This document shows, one piece after another, positions 1-6,723 of a stretch of 64,000 nucleotides of DNA. Numbering within the stretch: the first letter of the stretch is position 1; every line of letters starts with the position of its first letter. The position numbers and the translations under genes are program-made. This DNA is from Candidatus Dormiibacterota bacterium (GTDB lineage: Bacteria; Chloroflexota; Dormibacteria; Aeolococcales; Aeolococcaceae). The notes beneath the pieces are model-generated. The model made no database searches and was not told the DNA's origin. It worked only from the letters and a program-made list of their open reading frames with translations. Location: assembly GCA_963709585.1 (NCBI GenBank), contig CAVPXI010000005.1, positions 64,001 through 128,000 of the forward strand, given 5' to 3'.

Positions 1-1331
1 TTGACGGTGGTGGCGAAATCGCTGCCGCTGATAACGAGTTGGCTCGATTGCGCTGTTGCCGCCACAGCGGTGGACGCGACCGGCGGTGCAACATTCACGA
101 GTGTCGCGGCGACGAGCACAACCGCCGCGCCGATCACGACCTCCGTCGATCCGACCCGACGCAGTCCGCGCAGCACGGTCGACGAGTGGGGTACGTTGCC
201 GAAGCGATTGATCGCGCCGAGGCCGGCCAGTACAAGAAACAGCGCCACCTTCACCAACACCAGGACCCCGAAGGCGGTGCCGAACAGCTGGCCGATCGAT
301 CCGATTTCGATGACGGCGCGGAACGTGCCGGTCAGCGCGACGATCACGATGGCGATGCCTGCGATCGTTGAGAAACGGCGGACCCCCCGACCTTTGACGC
401 CCGACGGTTGGCCCCGTACAGCGAGGAGGAGGGTCAACAGCCCGCCAATCCAGGCCCCGCCCACCAGGGTGTGGGCCCACTGCGCAACGAGGTTGATCGC
501 CACCGGCGTCTGCGCTCCCGCGTGGCTCGCAGCGACATCCACCCACATCGAGGTCGCTGCGCCGAGGCCCGCCAGGGCGAGAGCGGCACGCGATGCGACC
601 GAAGGTGCAATCGACATGACGGCGACAGCCATGCCGGTTACCGCGATGGCCGCGACGCGCTCGACAGCGATCATCCCGAGCGACGTCGAGAACAGGGAGC
701 CGAAGCTCACGCCCGCAGCCTCGCGTTGCGCTTCGACGATGCCGGCGACCCCGAGTGCGCCTGCCAGCCACAATGCGCCGAGCGTTGAGGTGGCGAACTT
801 CGGGATGTCTCGCAGCGCAATCAGGCATGTCGATGCTACGCCCACGATCCCCATCACGCCGATGAAGAAGAGCCATCGCGCGACGACCGCCAGCACAGAC
901 GGCGGCGGCGAAACAACCGACTTGCTGGCGCGCGTGTTGGCGCTCGCGGCGGACTCGCCAACACCAAACGCGTATGCGCCGGTGGCGAGGTGACCATCAG
1001 TCTCAGACACAGTTTTCCATGTCACCGTGTACACACCGTTGCCGATCGGCCTGAGGGGGACCTCGAGCTCCAGCGGGTGACCCGGGACGACGACCGTCGG
1101 GCCGGCGTCGACGCTCACCCCTGAGCTGTTGATCACGGTGATGCTGGAAAGCTTCGGGTCTGGCGTTTCACCGAACGTGATCTCCACAACTTTCGGTGCG
1201 GTCTGGACCTCGGCGCCCTCGGGCGGAATCGCGCTCTGCGGCAGCGCATGAGCGGCCGCGGTCAGGGGCAGCGCAAGAGCTGCCCCGACCGCCATCGTCG
1301 CGGCGACGATGAACGACCGCCGTGCCCGCAT
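1..1331 (-). CDS. Copper resistance CopC/CopD-type fusion protein (partial, runs off window start)
   Basis: Manual translation from ATG 1331: MRARRSFIVAATMAVGAALALPLTAAA|HALPQSAIPPEG...ITFGETPDP...GVYTVTWKTVSETDGHLATGAYAFGVG, a CopC signature with His1 and DGH, followed by hydrophobic segments. Absent from the ORF track because it has no stop in the window. Confidence 0.85.
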   Translation of the reverse strand, partial: MRARRSFIVAATMAVGAALALPLTAAAHALPQSAIPPEGAEVQTAPKVVEITFGETPDPKLSSITVINSSGVSVDAGPTVVVPGHPLELEVPLRPIGNGVYTVTWKTVSETDGHLATGAYAFGVGESAASANTRASKSVVSPPPSVLAVVARWLFFIGVMGIVGVASTCLIALRDIPKFATSTLGALWLAGALGVAGIVEAQREAAGVSFGSLFSTSLGMIAVERVAAIAVTGMAVAVMSIAPSVASRAALALAGLGAATSMWVDVAASHAGAQTPVAINLVAQWAHTLVGGAWIGGLLTLLLAVRGQPSGVKGRGVRRFSTIAGIAIVIVALTGTFRAVIEIGSIGQLFGTAFGVLVLVKVALFLVLAGLGAINRFGNVPHSSTVLRGLRRVGSTEVVIGAAVVLVAATLVNVAPPVASTAVAATAQSSQLVISGSDFATTV

Positions 1332-1333
1332 CG

Positions 1334-2062
1334 CTACGGGCTCCTGCGGCGCAACCCTATCGCCAGATTGAGTGCGCTGAGGAGCACCGCCACGATGATC
1401 GCGATGATCGCGAGTGTTGTTGCCCCTGAGGCGCTCGTCTTCGCGTCGCCGGCCGTTGTTGACGCGGACTGTGCGCTCACCAGCGCACTCGCCGCGCGCT
1501 GGCTTACGGCGCTGACCTTGGTTGCAACGGCCGCGGCTGCCGGTATGACCACCGGGAACTGGACAGCGCTCGAATCCGCGATGGAGTCGAACGTCGTCGG
1601 GCCGGACGAAATTGTCTGGTTGACTGGGACGCCGTTGATGGTGCCGAAGACGCGAAAGGTGTACGTCCCGACCACGGTCGGGATGAGCGCGTAGTCGTAT
1701 TCGTCGCGCCTGCCGTTACCGGTATCAGAATCGTAGAGGGGCACCGGGCAGAACGGGCTACTCGTCGTGCTCCCCACCGTCACCGTGACCTGGAGATCGG
1801 GATGCGTGCAATCCTGGTTGAGCGTGCTGACGGGGGTCCCGATTGGGTTAGTGGCCGACGGGATGTCGACGAATACCTGGATCGCGTTTGGGGCGCCGAC
1901 GTAGGTGTCGGTGCCGCCGGCAGGCTCGAATTGCCATCCGATTGCAATCCGGTACTTCCCCGCCGTGAAGACGTAGTGCGCCGATGCGACTGCGAACGAT
2001 GTTGCCAGTGCGAGCAGCGCCGCGGCGACAACCGCGAGCGCTCGGAGGCTGGTTTTCCCCAC
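1334..2062 (-). CDS. Secreted, C-terminally membrane-anchored protein with His at mature position 1 (putative copper-binding, YcnI-like architecture)
   Basis: Signal peptide ending AVASA|HYVF, beta-rich core with two Cys, Ala/Ser linker, C-terminal TM helix plus RRR. SD GAGGAG at 2070-2075. Confidence 0.7.
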   Translation of the reverse strand: MGKTSLRALAVVAAALLALATSFAVASAHYVFTAGKYRIAIGWQFEPAGGTDTYVGAPNAIQVFVDIPSATNPIGTPVSTLNQDCTHPDLQVTVTVGSTTSSPFCPVPLYDSDTGNGRRDEYDYALIPTVVGTYTFRVFGTINGVPVNQTISSGPTTFDSIADSSAVQFPVVIPAAAAVATKVSAVSQRAASALVSAQSASTTAGDAKTSASGATTLAIIAIIVAVLLSALNLAIGLRRRSP

Positions 2063-2073
2063 GTGATATCTCC

Positions 2074-2109
2074 TCGTTGGTGAACGATCGAAGGTGAGCC
2101 GAAGCTCAC
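2074..2109 (-). promoter_or_regulatory. Two intergenic hairpins: a C(UUCG)G stem-loop and a stem overlapping the downstream SD
   Basis: Minus strand GTGAGC-TTCG-GCTCAC (2094-2109) and TCGTT-CACC-AACGA (2074-2087); the second overlaps GAGGAG. Confidence 0.55.
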
Positions 2110-2118
2110 GGACGTCGG

Positions 2119-2823
2119 TCAGATGCCGAGGAGCAGCGGCGGCGGCCTTCGCCAGAGATGCCGTCCCAGCCGGTCGAGTGGGGTGACGGCGAGAGCACGT
2201 GGACGGGGAACGACGACGGGTGCGCTCCGCCGGCGCCTGACGATGGCGCGCAGGAGTGCCTCCACCCGCTCGACGGCGACCTCGCGGCGGTGGAACAAAA
2301 CCTGGCAGATGCGGACCACGCAGGCGAGCAGCAGCGACACGTAGAGGTGGACGAGTGGGGCGGCCCAGTGGATCCCGCTGATCGCGCCCAATCCTGGCGC
2401 CGGCTGGGAGCGCGCCACCGCCTCCACGTTCTCCTGGACGAGGTACAGGGCGATCTGGGCGGCCGCGAGCGGCAGCCAGATGGCCGCCAGGCGAGTTCCC
2501 GGCGTCGATCGGGGCGAGCGCGCCCCGGCCCCGCTATCGGCTCGTCCGCGCCAGATGCGGCGCACGCCCGCCGCGGCGCGGTCGAGTCGGTCGTTCAGCG
2601 CCTGCCACGCTCGCGCCAGGCGGAACGCGAAGACGGCGCCGAGCACCACAAGGGCGCCGGCCACCGGGAGCATGTAGGCGTGGACCGGGTTGGTTATGGA
2701 CTCGACGATGCCGGCCAGCCCCCAGACCCGGAGGTACTCGACCGTGTGGCCGATGAACAGTCCAACCAGCGCGAGGAGCACGCCGCCTGATGCGGCAACC
2801 CTCGTCTGCCGATGTGCGATCAC
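2119..2823 (-). CDS. His-rich membrane protein with C-terminal RRPPP (putative regulatory leader)
   Basis: C-terminal half of ORF 2119..3501. GTG 2823 lies 6 nt after TATGCT. About 4 TM segments, with GHTVEY, HAYM, QENVE and HWAAPLVH. Confidence 0.7.
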   Translation of the reverse strand: MIAHRQTRVAASGGVLLALVGLFIGHTVEYLRVWGLAGIVESITNPVHAYMLPVAGALVVLGAVFAFRLARAWQALNDRLDRAAAGVRRIWRGRADSGAGARSPRSTPGTRLAAIWLPLAAAQIALYLVQENVEAVARSQPAPGLGAISGIHWAAPLVHLYVSLLLACVVRICQVLFHRREVAVERVEALLRAIVRRRRSAPVVVPRPRALAVTPLDRLGRHLWRRPPPLLLGI

Positions 2824-2950
2824 GCCGGGAGCATACGCTCGCCCAGGCGGGTCAAGCGAGCCATAATTGGCGCCGCGCCCGGCCGGCCGATGGTCGCCGG
2901 CGTGCGCGAATCTGCCGTCAAGCACCCGTTGCCGAGAGCGAGGATTGCGG

Positions 2951-3607
2951 ATGAAACCCTCGGGGAGCCTCGGAGCCCTCACTCGATCCAAGCGCGGGCA
3001 GGCGCTGATCGTTTCCCTCGCACTTGCGGGTGGGCTTGGCATCGGGGCGCTGATGTCCATGACGGTGCACCCGCGCGCCGCGACCACGAGTGCCCCATTG
3101 GAGATCACGCCCTCTGCGAACATCATCGGCTCGCCACTGACACGCCAGCCGACGCCTCCGCTGACGGGGCTCGTCGACCAGAACGGCCAGCCAGTTTCAC
3201 TGGCAGACGAGAAGGGCCACGTCGTGCTCGTGGCATTCATGGACCCGCTGTGCGTCAACCTCTGCCCGCTCCTCGGTCGTGACATCGTCGCCGTGGAGCA
3301 GGCACTGCCCAAGGGGATGAATCCAGTTCTGCTCATCGTCAGCGTCGTCGCCGACCGCACGTCGGCGGACGTGGCGCAGTTCATCCGCACGAACCTCACA
3401 ACCAAGTGGGATCCCGGCTGGCACTGGCTGCTCGGACCCGACGCCGAGCTGAAGATCACCTGGTTGAAATGGGGTGAGCCGATCGAACCGCCGCACACCA
3501 ATTACCTCGAGGTCATCGACCCACAGGGGTACGTCCGCGTGATCTACCCAGCGCCGCTCTTTGTGAGCGATGTCGTGCACGCGATCACGGTGGTAGCGCA
3601 CGAATAG
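2951..3607 (+). CDS. SCO1/SenC family copper chaperone
   Basis: N-terminal TM, LVDQNGQPVSL, CxxxC motif (DPLCVNLCP), distal His (PPHT), thioredoxin-like tail IDPQG. Confidence 0.85.
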   Translation: MKPSGSLGALTRSKRGQALIVSLALAGGLGIGALMSMTVHPRAATTSAPLEITPSANIIGSPLTRQPTPPLTGLVDQNGQPVSLADEKGHVVLVAFMDPLCVNLCPLLGRDIVAVEQALPKGMNPVLLIVSVVADRTSADVAQFIRTNLTTKWDPGWHWLLGPDAELKITWLKWGEPIEPPHTNYLEVIDPQGYVRVIYPAPLFVSDVVHAITVVAHE

Positions 3608-3677
3608 CCGCTGAGGCAAGCCGCAACAGCGAGGCACAGTTGAGAGGAAGGCCGCTTTTGCGCTAAGGTCGCGGCCT

Positions 3678-4097
3678 ATGCCGACGTACAAGATGGGTCA
3701 GGCCGCCGATCTCCTCGGCGTGAGCGTCGATACGGTTCGTCGCTGGGCCGACGCCGGACGCATCGATACGGTGCGCACCGAGGGCGGCCACCGGCTGGTC
3801 GACGGCGTCGCTCTGGCGAGGTTTGCCGTCAAGCTCGCCAGCAATCACCCGGCCGTGCCCGTGACCGAATCGGCGCGCAATCACTTCCTCGGGCTGGTCA
3901 CCGACGTTGCCACCGACGGCGTGATGGCGCACGTCAAGCTTCAGGCGGGGCCGTTCCGGGTCAGCTCATTGATCAGCAGCGAGGCGGTCGCCGAGCTCGG
4001 CCTCGAGCCCGGAATGCTCGCCGTCGCTTCCGTCAAAGCCACCAACGTGGTGATCGAGCTGCCTCCACCCGCAGAGCCACAACCGAGGAAGACGTGA
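3678..4097 (+). CDS. HTH (MerR/excisionase-like) plus TOBE molybdate-responsive regulator
   Basis: AADLLGVSVDTVRRW HTH followed by the SARN...VKATNV TOBE/Mop motif; directly upstream of modA. Confidence 0.88.
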   Translation: MPTYKMGQAADLLGVSVDTVRRWADAGRIDTVRTEGGHRLVDGVALARFAVKLASNHPAVPVTESARNHFLGLVTDVATDGVMAHVKLQAGPFRVSSLISSEAVAELGLEPGMLAVASVKATNVVIELPPPAEPQPRKT

Positions 4098-4876
4098 AGC
4101 TCAGAAGTCGCACGATCCTGCTTTCTGGCACCGCGGTAATCGCGCTTGCGGCGTGCGGCTCGAGTCCATCCAGCGGTCCGTCAGCCTCGCCCGATCCACT
4201 CAGCGGGTCGATCACCGTGTTCGCCGCGTCCTCACTGACCTCCACGTTCAACACGGCGGAGAAGGGTCTAGAACTCGATCATCCCGGCTTCGCGGCTCAG
4301 TATTCCTACGGCAGCTCGCAGACGCTGGTCACCCAGATCATCAACGGCGCGCCGGCCGACGTCATCGCGACAGCGAACACCACCACGATGCAGCAACTTG
4401 TCGCCAAGGGACTGGTCAACACCCCGCAGGCCTTCTGCAAGAACAAGCTCGAAATCATCGTCGCGCCAGGAAACCCAAAGAACATCAAGACCCTCGCCGA
4501 CCTCGCCACTCCAGGTCTCGCCGTCGTCCTCGCCGCGGCCGGCGTTCCTGTGGGCGACTATGCGGCCAAGGCCCTGAAGGCAGCGCACATCACGCTCACG
4601 CCGAAGTCACTCCAGCTCGACGACGCAGTCGTGGTCGAACAGGTCGAATCCGGTAATGCCGACGCGGGCCTGGTCTTCGTGACCGACGTCGTCAGCGCGG
4701 GCAGCAAGGTCACCGGCGTCCCGATACCCGATGCGCAGAACGTGATCGGCACGTATGAGATCGCCGCGCTGAAGGCGAGCACGAACGTGGCGGCAGCCGA
4801 GGCGTTTGCGACCTCGGCGGTGTCGGGCGACGTGCAGACCCAGCTGCTGGCTGACGGGTTCTTGAAGGCCTCATGA
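4094..4876 (+). CDS. modA: Molybdate ABC transporter substrate-binding lipoprotein
   Basis: Lipobox LAAC, VFAASSL, YGSSQTL, VPVGDYA. Confidence 0.93.
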   Translation: MKLRSRTILLSGTAVIALAACGSSPSSGPSASPDPLSGSITVFAASSLTSTFNTAEKGLELDHPGFAAQYSYGSSQTLVTQIINGAPADVIATANTTTMQQLVAKGLVNTPQAFCKNKLEIIVAPGNPKNIKTLADLATPGLAVVLAAAGVPVGDYAAKALKAAHITLTPKSLQLDDAVVVEQVESGNADAGLVFVTDVVSAGSKVTGVPIPDAQNVIGTYEIAALKASTNVAAAEAFATSAVSGDVQTQLLADGFLKAS

Positions 4877-5673
4877 CCCGGGGCGTCACGCGACGCCCCC
4901 TTGTCGGTCTCCTGATCCCGGCCGCGGTGGCGGTGCTGTTCATCGCGCTGCCGCTGATCGGACTGCTCGTCCACGTCGACTGGAGCAACCTCCCGTCGCA
5001 GCTGGTGTCAGCCGATGTGCTCACCGCCCTCCGGCTCTCCCTCGAGTGCTCGATCATCGCGGTGGCGATCTCGCTGGTGATCGGTGTCCCGCTGGCGTAT
5101 CTGCTGGCGCGCACATCGATTCCGGGACGCCGGTTGCTCCGCGGGCTGGTGACCCTGCCACTCGTGCTGCCACCAGTGGTCGGCGGGATCGCATTGCAGA
5201 CGGCCCTCGGCCGGACCACGCCCGTCGGGACGGTGCTGGACCACTTCGGGATCGTGCTTCCGTTCAGCACCGCTGGGGCGGCGATCGCCGAGGCGTTCGT
5301 CGGCTTTCCCTTCCTGGTGATCACCGTCGAGGCCGGGCTCCGGCAGCGCGACGACAGCTTCGAGGAGGTCGCCGCGACCCTCGGTGCCCGGCCATGGCGG
5401 CGGTTCTGGCGGGTGACCATGCCTCTGGCAGCGCCGTCGATCGCCGCCGGTGCCGCACTCTGCTGGGCCCGGGCATTGGGCGAGTTCGGTGCCACGATCA
5501 CGTTCGCGGGGAGTTTTCCGGGAACCACCGAAACGCTCCCGATCGCCGCCTACAGCTCGTTCGAAGGGTCGGGACAGATCGGCATGGCGATCACGCTGTC
5601 CCTCCTGCTGCTCGCGATCTCGGTCCTGGTGCTGGTTGTGCTGCGTGACCGCTGGCTCGGTGCCCTGCGGTGA
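4873..5673 (+). CDS. modB: Molybdate ABC transporter permease
   Basis: LPLVLPPVVGG, EAA-like loop EEVAATLGA, WARALGEFGAT. Confidence 0.93.
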   Translation: MTRGVTRRPLVGLLIPAAVAVLFIALPLIGLLVHVDWSNLPSQLVSADVLTALRLSLECSIIAVAISLVIGVPLAYLLARTSIPGRRLLRGLVTLPLVLPPVVGGIALQTALGRTTPVGTVLDHFGIVLPFSTAGAAIAEAFVGFPFLVITVEAGLRQRDDSFEEVAATLGARPWRRFWRVTMPLAAPSIAAGAALCWARALGEFGATITFAGSFPGTTETLPIAAYSSFEGSGQIGMAITLSLLLLAISVLVLVVLRDRWLGALR

Positions 5674-6723
5674 CCCTTCACGCGCGAAGTCCGCACCCAG
5701 CTTGGAACGCTCGGTCTCGATTGCGATCTCTCGGTCGACGCCGGGGTCACGGTCGCGGTGCTCGGACCAAACGGTGCCGGCAAGACGACCCTGCTCCGGG
5801 TGATCGCGGGGCTGGTGCCGGTCGACGAAGGACGGGTCGAGTGTGACGGAGCCGTGTTCGAGGACACCGCCACCGGCGCGTGGCTGACGCCTGAAGCGCG
5901 CCGGGTCGGATTCGTGTTCCAGGACCATGGACTGTTCCCGCACATCAGCGTGCTCGACAATGTCGCCTTCGGTCTGCGTGCCCGCGGCGTCGATCGGAAG
6001 ACGGCAAACGCGAAGGCGCACGAGTGGCTCGCGCGGGTGGAGCTCGCGACATACGCGACGAGCCGCCCGTCGGTGCTGAGCGGCGGCCAGTCGCAGCGGG
6101 CGGCGCTGGCGCGCGTCCTGGTCACCGAACCCCAGGCACTGCTGCTCGACGAACCGCTTGCCGCCGTCGACGCCTCGGGACGCCTCGAGCTTCGCCGCGC
6201 GCTTCGCGAGCACCTCTCCTCATTCGCCGGTGTGCGTCTGATCGTGACCCACGATCCGCTCGAGGCGGCGTCGCTCGCCGAGCGCGTCGTCGTCCTCGAG
6301 GATGGTCGCGTCACCCAGGAGGGAACGTTCGGCGAGGTGTCGGCGCGTCCGCAATCGGCATGGATCGCCCGGATGGCAGGGCTGAACCTGCTCCGCGGCG
6401 CAGTGTCGGACGGCACGATCCTCCTCGATGACGGTTCCCGTCTCACCGTGGCCATCGACATCCGGGGCCCCGCGCTGGCAACCATCCACCCTCGTGCCGT
6501 GGCCCTGTACCGCCAGGCCCCGGAGGGCAGCCCGCGCAACGTCCTGCGCTGCAAGGTCGCCGGGGTCGACCCGGAAGGTGACCGCTGGCGGATCCGCCTC
6601 GACGGCCCTTTCCCTCTCGTCGCTGAAGTGACTCCGGGGGCGGCCGCGGATCTGCGCCTCGCTGAGGGAGGCGAGGTGTTCGCGGTGGTCAAGGCAACCG
6701 AGATCGACGTCTATTCCCTGTGA
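5670..6723 (+). CDS. modC: Molybdate ABC transporter ATPase with TOBE domain (+1 frameshift near 5686-5691)
   Basis: GPNGAGKT, LSGGQ, LLLDEP and C-terminal VKATE. The GTG at 5670 overlapping the modB stop becomes in-frame if one base of GAAGTC is removed. Confidence 0.9.

Follow-up and report, generated by a model that had tools for sequence, protein, structure and literature searches.

Gene 1, which heads a minus-strand copper operon in a 64,000-nucleotide (nt) stretch of a Candidatus Dormiibacterota genome (GenBank assembly GCA_963709585.1, contig CAVPXI010000005.1, positions 64,001 to 128,000; hereafter the window), encodes a 234-amino-acid protein with four predicted transmembrane (TM) helices and a C-terminal R-P-P-P motif. 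We propose that gene 1 probably serves as a nascent-chain, arrest-based translational switch on the copper genes that follow it. This reading is favoured because of the anatomy of gene 1, its conservation and synteny, and the complementarity between its last codons and the Shine-Dalgarno (SD) region of gene 2, all of which can be read directly from the compared loci; stalling of the ribosome, and the dependence of stalling on force and on copper, are predicted. An initial annotation of the locus had interpreted gene 1 as a copper-sensing membrane leader with an RPPP arrest-like tail, and this interpretation is partly supported by the comparative evidence presented here, in which stalling and the copper response have the standing of predictions.

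The conserved C-terminal RxPP motif

Gene 1 had initially been given a start at position 2835, which is a TAT codon. The true start is the GTG codon at 2823, where most of the 234-amino-acid homologues begin. Its C-terminus (HLWRRPPPLLLGI) reads H-L-W-R-R-P-P-P-L-L-L-G-I from H222 onwards, with the RRPPP codons at 2151-2137 and the motif ending five codons before the stop, as had been annotated for the HLWRRPPP tail. Among the matches listed from a search that found 264, 119 of 120 close homologues end in RPPP followed by five to six residues, the exception (P0099) being a protein whose tail is read in another frame; the named close homologues belong to Candidatus Dormibacterota. An exhaustive library at 50% identity yielded 149 representatives, of which 121 carry R-x-P-P within their last 30 residues, the second residue being divided over RPPP (108), RAPP (9), RGPP (2) and RSPP (2). 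Twenty-seven of the other 28 are matches that end at or before query residue 211, representing fragments or shifted frames, while the last, full-length P0171, has QPPP. The R-[PAGS]-P-P motif is thus present in 121/122 representatives whose match covers the tail, down to approximately 30% identity, and the C-terminal conservation that had been put forward as a check on the annotation is borne out. The motif lies 2 to 11 residues from the stop in the homologues, is followed by variable residues, and falls within the last 18 residues of 113/120 complete C-termini in the fetched loci. These homologue, representative and locus counts, rather than those of the 101-sequence alignment (A1) used below, provide the unbiased measure of tail conservation, and they indicate that the gene 1 tail is not a product of chance.

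In the portion of Fujiwara et al. (EMBO J 2025; PMC12992588) that was available, to which all statements on that study are limited, P, A, G and S at the second residue are described, citing Tanner 2009 and Woolstenhulme 2013, as the arrest-competent set, and the RxPP class is defined by x = A or G, with S, D and P partly permissive. Gene 1 carries the R-x-P-P of RAPP-like C-terminal arrest peptides, and its x = P places it in the class that 'partially retains' arrest. The source genome also encodes the elongation factor EF-P, through which a PPP pause could be tuned.

In a minority of the Dormibacteria assemblies (L037, L054, L057 and the protein P0099), the tail of gene 1 is off-frame and runs on through the spacer, which points to upstream indels arising from assembly error or decayed copies. 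Programmed frameshifting at CCGCCGCCG was rejected as the principal reading, in that the off-frame loci are a minority with upstream indels and the zero-frame tail is conserved as protein. A crude genome-wide scan returned 16 open reading frames (ORFs) with a C-terminal RxPP, of which two were inspected. The longest of the scan is an alcohol-dehydrogenase-like ORF (G000 C4:254711-255661) that ends in ...IRAPPALSGP; its tail looks frame-shifted, with a C-terminus-like ending in another frame just downstream, and the ORF does not qualify as an arrest candidate. The second inspected ORF is Ala/Ser/Arg-rich and resembles a non-coding frame.

The gene 1-gene 2 junction

Gene 1 and gene 2 are separated by a 56-nt same-strand spacer (2118-2063), and the SD of gene 2 lies 7 nt upstream of its GTG start codon (2062-2060). 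Both the minimum free energy (MFE) fold and an RNAalifold consensus computed from 29 Dormibacteria junctions pair the CUCCUCG of gene 1 codons 231-233 with the CGAGGAG of the SD region in a basal helix. The middle helix above it contains the stop codon UGA (2121-2119), paired with UCA (2083-2081), and the apical hairpin, GUGAGC-UUCG-GCUCAC (2109-2094), is likewise present in both folds. The initial annotation had correctly placed a C(UUCG)G hairpin in the 56-nt spacer and had described a second stem overlapping the SD of gene 2; the SD is indeed paired, but its partner is located within the coding sequence of gene 1 rather than in the spacer, and the stop codon is paired as well. With the first base of the predicted P-site codon as reference, sequence arithmetic puts the anti-SD at +10 to +16. 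Computationally, the SD of gene 2 is thus paired with a stretch of messenger RNA (mRNA) that would lie under a ribosome halted at the motif, which is the arrangement expected of SD unmasking of the SecM, MifM and CutF type.

The three-part stem-loop is retained in the 29 loci, where 98.4% of 609 cells are paired, as compared with 31.5-48.5% when the partners are slid, and the conservation of the spacer hairpins that the initial annotation had called for is thereby confirmed. Mean column identity of the spacer across these loci is 83%, on par with the coding sequence. At codons 229-233, synonymous sites are conserved to 0.88-1.00, whereas 66 comparable columns average 0.61 and the codons of P227 and P228 vary freely. 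Both the spacer identity and this synonymous constraint suggest that the RNA itself is under selection. The next clade (L002, L056) forms the helix from ACUCCUCU and AGAGGAGU, with a U-A pair in place of the G2127-C2076 pair of the window.

It is highly improbable that the locus reflects chance, namely an Arg/Pro-rich tail in a 67% G+C genome beside an incidental hairpin. A crude ORF set of the source genome contains 48 instances of RPPP and 172 of RxPP (x = P, A, G, S), and the fold energy of the single sequence is not better than that of shuffles (z = -1.11), so that the case for the structure rests on conservation. The comparative data contradict chance: the motif persists among the tail-covering representatives with a single exception, the spacer is as strongly conserved as stated above, and gene 1 is the only credible C-terminal RxPP candidate of the genome scan, in which two of the 16 ORFs were inspected.

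Complementarity between tail and SD was evaluated across the family at 108 analysable loci, grouped into 44 clusters at 60% identity. Downstream starts were placed automatically (ORF with the highest third-position GC content, GC3, and best SD), blind to the tail, and the duplex energy of the 30-nt stalled-ribosome window with the downstream SD region was ranked against the other 30-nt windows of the same gene. The stall window falls in the top 10% in 20/44 clusters (4.4 expected) and is the best window in 12, one of which (L009) derives from a genome, G145, flagged as unpublished. In an earlier run, for which 13 starts had been placed by hand, 9 ranked in the top 10%. In loci beyond the WRRPPP clade, CCU accounts for 35% of 102 motif Pro codons as opposed to 10% of 566 body Pro codons, and CCUCC results; inside this clade there is no CCU bias (9% vs 8%) and the anti-SD sits in Leu codons.

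Membrane protein, copper-handling partners and the proposed switch

The four TM helices initially ascribed to gene 1 are recovered as four hydrophobic spans by hydropathy and as four long helices in an AlphaFold2 model built on alignment A1 (mean pLDDT 88). K and R residues number two at the N-terminus, eight in loop 2, 14 in the C-terminal tail and one each in loops 1 and 3, and the topology is therefore predicted to be N-in/C-in. A Foldseek search of the model against the PDB at E up to 1e-3 gave no match, the fold being a generic helical bundle, and gene 1 belongs to no Pfam or NCBIfam family, its sole Pfam row at E up to 0.1 being a sub-threshold holin match. Gene 1 is not a member of DUF2946, the family of the leaders cited in the initial annotation, as the DUF2946 model gives no match to it at E up to 0.1.

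The previously noted GHTVEY (residues 25-30), HAYM (48-51), QENVE (130-134) and HWAAPLVH (152-159) motifs are all present in the translation and harbor the residues proposed as ligands. Within alignment A1, Q130, E131 and E134 are invariant, H26 is found in 96/96 and H48 in 99/99 non-gap rows, and H152 and M51 occur in 91/101 and 76/101 sequences, respectively, in agreement with the expected conservation of the His residues. The columns conserved to at least 90% comprise H26, H48, Y50, Q123, Y127, N132 and H152; Cys is absent from both these and the invariant columns, as is the CXXC/CXXXC of DUF2946-type proteins. The conserved candidates (H26, H48, M51, Q130, E131, E134 and H152) are predicted to lie at the outer ends of TM1-TM4, and from the topology we infer that they cluster in space. 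The distance from H152 to R226 is 73.3 +/- 1.5 residues (range 69-77) over the 101 sequences of 24-78% identity. The linker before RPPP is kept in length and varies in sequence. The approximately 15 residues that precede the P-x-[ED]-R-[LFW]-G-x-x-L-W-x-R-P-P-P block are variable in sequence.

The downstream genes had initially been read as a His1 secreted protein and CopC/CopD, and both assignments are upheld. The signal peptide of gene 2 ends in ASA before H, giving His29 as the mature N-terminus, and H29 is invariant. A model of the protein (pLDDT 70) has a beta-sandwich at residues 29-152, with weak Foldseek matches to copper-binding CrdA, FetP, P19 and HftA (E 1.6e-3 and weaker). No Pfam match was obtained with 27 members scanned, nor an NCBIfam match, with the DUF1775/YcnI models included, and the gene 2 profile retrieved coiled-coil noise only from the PDB sequences. 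With its N-terminal His, beta-sandwich and C-terminal TM anchor, the protein resembles YcnI in architecture. A gap of 2 nt separates the gene 2 stop from the start of gene 3, whose matches to CopC (PF04234; 3.7e-16) and CopD (PF05425; 1e-17) both lie above the Pfam cut-offs.

A gene 2-like protein, recognizable after the signal peptide by the pattern H-x-x-...-G-x-Y-x-[IL]-x-[VI]-G-W-x-x-E-P, is located downstream of gene 1 homologues in 84/108 loci. Thirteen other downstream proteins were scanned and match CopC (7), cupredoxin (2), SCO1/SenC (1), AhpC/thioredoxin-like (1), a periplasmic binding protein (1) or none (1). The genes behind gene 1 homologues are thus almost always predicted copper-handling genes, and the synteny with copper genes suggested at the outset is evident. 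In L062:3266-4717, the downstream protein of 484 amino acids has a gene 2-like N-terminal domain fused to a CopC domain, and therefore physically links the His1 family to CopC. In L008, L110 and L119, a polytopic membrane family that has no Pfam match (N-terminus ...AHAFGKRYDLPVPLWLF...) takes the place of the gene 2-like partner, and this replacement family stands behind some RSPP, RGPP and RPPP leaders.

In the proposed switch, peptide-bond formation would be slow when a ribosome reaches R226-P-P-P, an RxPP arrest motif. In the register borrowed from the CruR toeprint, in which the third and fourth motif codons occupy the P and A sites (PMC12992588), the pause would place P228 and P229 in these two sites, respectively, and EF-P would tune it, as in CutF (Ozturk et al., 10.1101/2025.02.05.636593). 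The paused ribosome would cover the next ~15 nt, including the CUCCUCG in the mRNA channel, such that the SD is freed for the duration of the pause and gene 2 and, via the 2-nt junction, the CopC-CopD gene would be translated. A short pause or release would allow the stem-loop to reform and mask the SD. At stalling, the four TM helices would already be outside the ribosome and the outer-face His/Met/Glu cluster assembled, with a tether of fixed length joining TM4 to the peptidyl-transferase centre. Copper binding may then alter the folding or packing of the bundle and, through the pulling force on the tether, the length of the pause.

As regards direction, we lean slightly towards stalling as the ON state in low copper, with copper releasing the arrest and turning the operon OFF, over the opposite, CutF-like direction, because CopC-CopD with its His1 partner resembles a YcnJ-type uptake module. 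That a CopC-CopD operon acts in uptake is an assumption taken over from B. subtilis ycnJ.

Several observations weigh against an arrest switch. The invariance of R226, P228 and P229 in alignment A1 is circular, the sequences having been picked for the motif; the Ala-to-Pro exchange in ApdA and ApdP only partially retains arrest (PMC12992588); and RPPP, unlike RAPP and RGPP, is expected to be relieved by EF-P. At the RNA level, the fold energy is unremarkable and compensatory double changes are found at 0/21 pairs in the 29 Dormibacteria loci, the helix being conserved rather than proven by covariation. In gene 1 itself, 6/213 control windows equal the tail window in their pairing with the SD region, and Pro codons, being C-rich, would favour complementarity to a G-rich SD in any case. 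For the cluster enrichment, the binomial p (1.6e-9) is indicative only and too favourable, given the relatedness of clusters. In 12/44 clusters the rank is above 0.5, corresponding to no special tail:SD complementarity, and SD unmasking is therefore not universal in the gene 1 family. Finally, a protein of 234 amino acids with a confident fold may carry a function of its own.

One alternative is plain translational coupling, in which there is no regulated pause, each ribosome finishing gene 1 unwinds the stem-loop and gene 2 initiates in fixed proportion. RPPP would then be kept for its role in the protein, for instance as a cytoplasmic motif for docking or turnover in a working membrane protein with gene 2 as its partner. 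The location of the stop codon and last codons of gene 1 inside the helix fits this explanation, as does the pairing of a well-folded, conserved four-TM protein with gene 2-like proteins, which would suit a functional pair. A docking motif is, however, unlikely to accept exactly P, A, G and S after an invariant Arg, or to be placed 2-11 residues from the stop between variable flanks. Furthermore, arrest has been proven for this motif class (PMC12992588), and the tether is conserved in length and not in sequence. Coupling of this kind is as such considered unlikely.

The clusters lacking complementarity, several of which have gaps of 100-300 nt before the next gene, would rather fit an arrest switch with another output, acting on transcription termination or mRNA fate. 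This is how CruR of Bordetella pertussis works (Roy et al., mBio 2022; PMC9426467, cited from the part available): a stalled ribosome would block Rho loading and its release would expose the spacer. The spacer in the window is, however, just 56 nt, highly structured and directly paired through the SD, and a promoter and terminator consensus scan of positions 1900-3100, whose scope excludes Rho utilisation sites, found no site, making this output distinctly improbable here.

Within the preferred reading of an arrest switch that acts by SD unmasking, a broader view of the family is offered tentatively, and is possible rather than probable. The family may constitute a ligand-gated force sensor, consisting of a four-TM bundle, an outer-face His3-Met-Glu copper site, a 73.3 +/- 1.5-residue tether and an EF-P-tunable RPPP pause, in which metal-dependent packing of the bundle would be turned into pulling force on that pause. 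The protein would then remain membrane-embedded and work together with the His1 protein that it had just switched on, and would thus be sensor, timer and subunit in one. The RPPP form could then represent a large clade, hidden from RAPP/RGPP mining, across Dormibacteria, other Chloroflexota and Actinomycetota.

Locus layout, distribution and related systems

The features of the operon and its divergent neighbour are collected in Table 1.

Table 1. Positions in the window of gene 1, its candidate regulatory elements and the adjoining genes.
Feature	Position	Strand	Basis or remark
Gene 3, CopC-CopD fusion, extends past the window edge	3..1331	-	Pfam CopC and CopD matches
Gene 2, exported His1 protein	1334..2062	-	Signal peptide, beta-sandwich, C-terminal TM anchor
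SD region CGAGGAG of gene 2	2070..2076	-	GAGGAG (2075-2070) invariant in 29 loci
Three-part stem-loop (basal, middle, apical)	2070..2133	-	Conservation in 29 loci
Anti-SD CUCCUCG in codons L231-L232-G233	2127..2133	-	MFE fold and RNAalifold consensus
R226-P227-P228-P229 codons (AGG CCG CCG CCG), predicted stall site	2137..2148	-	Conservation; register by analogy with CruR toeprint
Candidate ligand residue span	2368..2748	-	Conserved H/M/Q/E residues and topology
Candidate ligand codons of gene 1	H26 2748-2746; H48 2682-2680; M51 2673-2671; Q130-E134 2436-2422; H152 2370-2368		
Gene 1, 234-amino-acid four-TM membrane protein with C-terminal RPPP	2823..2119	-	GTG 2823-2821; TGA 2121-2119 included
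Divergent thioredoxin-fold gene, CxxxC motif	2951..3607	+	Weak SCO1/SenC match (E 5.9e-4), below Pfam cut-off

The 128-nt divergent intergenic region upstream of gene 1 (window 2824-2950) contains hexamers of the TTGAC type and TATGCT, which end 6 nt upstream of GTG 2823, as well as an out-of-frame 14-codon ORF (ATG 2864) whose TGA overlaps the gene 1 GTG. Homologue annotations read this stretch in differing frames (MARL... extensions). These readings suggest that the stretch is conserved as DNA, for instance as a promoter, possibly with a leaderless or very short-leader transcript, rather than as protein; the consensus scan gave no promoter in it. An Rfam search of window positions 1-4200 at E up to 1 returned no family. 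Window positions 3678-6723 harbor a ModE-like regulator (MerR-HTH and TOBE), followed by ORFs resembling a periplasmic binding protein, a permease and an ABC ATPase; judged from the translations alone, these three transport ORFs probably encode a molybdate transporter.

A gene 1 homologue was identified in 17/151 sampled genomes of the GTDB phylum of the window and in 17/301 sampled genomes of the phylum of a Microthrixaceae locus. In the second sample, 13 of the 15 ORFs examined end in RxPP (RAPP 10, RGPP 2, RPPP 1) and precede gene 2-like, CopC-CopD or YcnI-like genes. The RPPP proteins of Dormibacteria and the RAPP/RGPP proteins of actinobacteria match over their full length (HMM E 1e-8 to 1e-12) and on this evidence are one distant family. 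A second homology search, from P0184, returned 17 proteins with uninformative names. In L139 (G296), an RGPP-ending distant relative stands directly before a protein with an N-terminal pattern (H-A-R-V-S-P ... P-T-E-K) that, by eye, resembles that of classical YcnI/DUF1775.

In SecM, MifM and VemP, an upstream ORF arrests in a force-sensitive manner close to its C-terminus, and the stalled ribosome unmasks a downstream SD. They monitor Sec or YidC activity rather than a metal, and employ other arrest sequences than gene 1.

Closest in kind are the proteins described in PMC12992588, where RAPP/RGPP proteins are found to be over-represented ahead of YcnI-family, PCu(A)C and PepSY genes, those preceding YcnI-family genes being mostly TM proteins. 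Seven S. lividans arrest peptides are reported there, including the four-TM SLIV_18480, with a predicted site of three His and one Met. Its arrest is Arg-dependent in vitro and in vivo, with R273A raising the reporter approximately 10-fold (PMC12992588 supplement). The initial annotation knew of no characterised polytopic-membrane sensor of this kind, a statement that the arrest of SLIV_18480 renders out of date.

Gene 1 fits this small-protein class (<300 amino acids, TM segments, same-strand downstream gene 56 nt away), and shares with SLIV_18480 a length below 300 amino acids, four TM helices, R-x-P-P near the stop, a same-strand copper-related gene downstream and a candidate site of His and Met. 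In SLIV_18480, however, the Arg is residue 273 rather than 226, and its conserved Cys40 and Cys127 are absent from the gene 1 family. That family mostly has RPPP, whereas only RAPP/RGPP were extracted in PMC12992588; the comparison with SLIV_18480 is one of described features. Its distant actinobacterial relatives end in RAPP or RGPP, as in the PMC12992588 class. The signature words of the gene 1 family gave no match in the searched part of the PMC12992588 uORF list, a result that is silent on family membership.

The initial annotation had also attributed RAPP/RGPP motifs and stem-loop control to the DUF2946 leaders CruR and CutF, which is correct for the RAPP of CruR. CutF of Rhodobacter capsulatus has instead a C-terminal PPP, with an SD-masking stem-loop and EF-P involvement, in the available part of its description (Ozturk et al., 10.1101/2025.02.05.636593), while CruR acts through Rho-dependent termination and has a CXXC (PMC9426467). 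Whereas gene 1 has four TM helices and His/Met/Glu candidates, CutF is small and secreted, with a signal peptide and CXXXC. It turns on a detoxifying oxidase at high copper, while the genes behind gene 1 look like an uptake or chaperone module. In CruR, copper is sensed by the nascent protein and relieves the arrest, turning the operon off (PMC9426467). Gene 1 resembles CruR as an upstream ORF heading a copper operon, in its C-terminal RxPP-class motif and in the favoured copper direction. It differs in that CruR is a single-pass secreted protein of another family, with a CXXC ligand and a Rho-dependent output rather than SD masking.

The kind of switch is as such already known, and what is new is an unnamed, non-DUF2946 protein family, the predominance of RPPP, the explicit SD/anti-SD geometry and the fixed tether. 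It was only in 2022-2025 that arrest-peptide switches were recognised in settings other than protein secretion, and for polytopic copper-linked leaders the arrest itself is the only part demonstrated so far (PMC12992588). RAPP/RGPP mining alone undercounts such leaders. The gene 1 family supplies a large, alignable set of natural variants (P, A, G, S), a ligand-site candidate, a fixed tether and a simple SD/anti-SD read-out, ingredients that suit testing how a ligand outside the cell sets the length of a ribosomal pause. For annotation, the proposed switch would furthermore suggest what is done by a hypothetical gene pair that is widespread in soil Dormibacteria and Actinomycetota.

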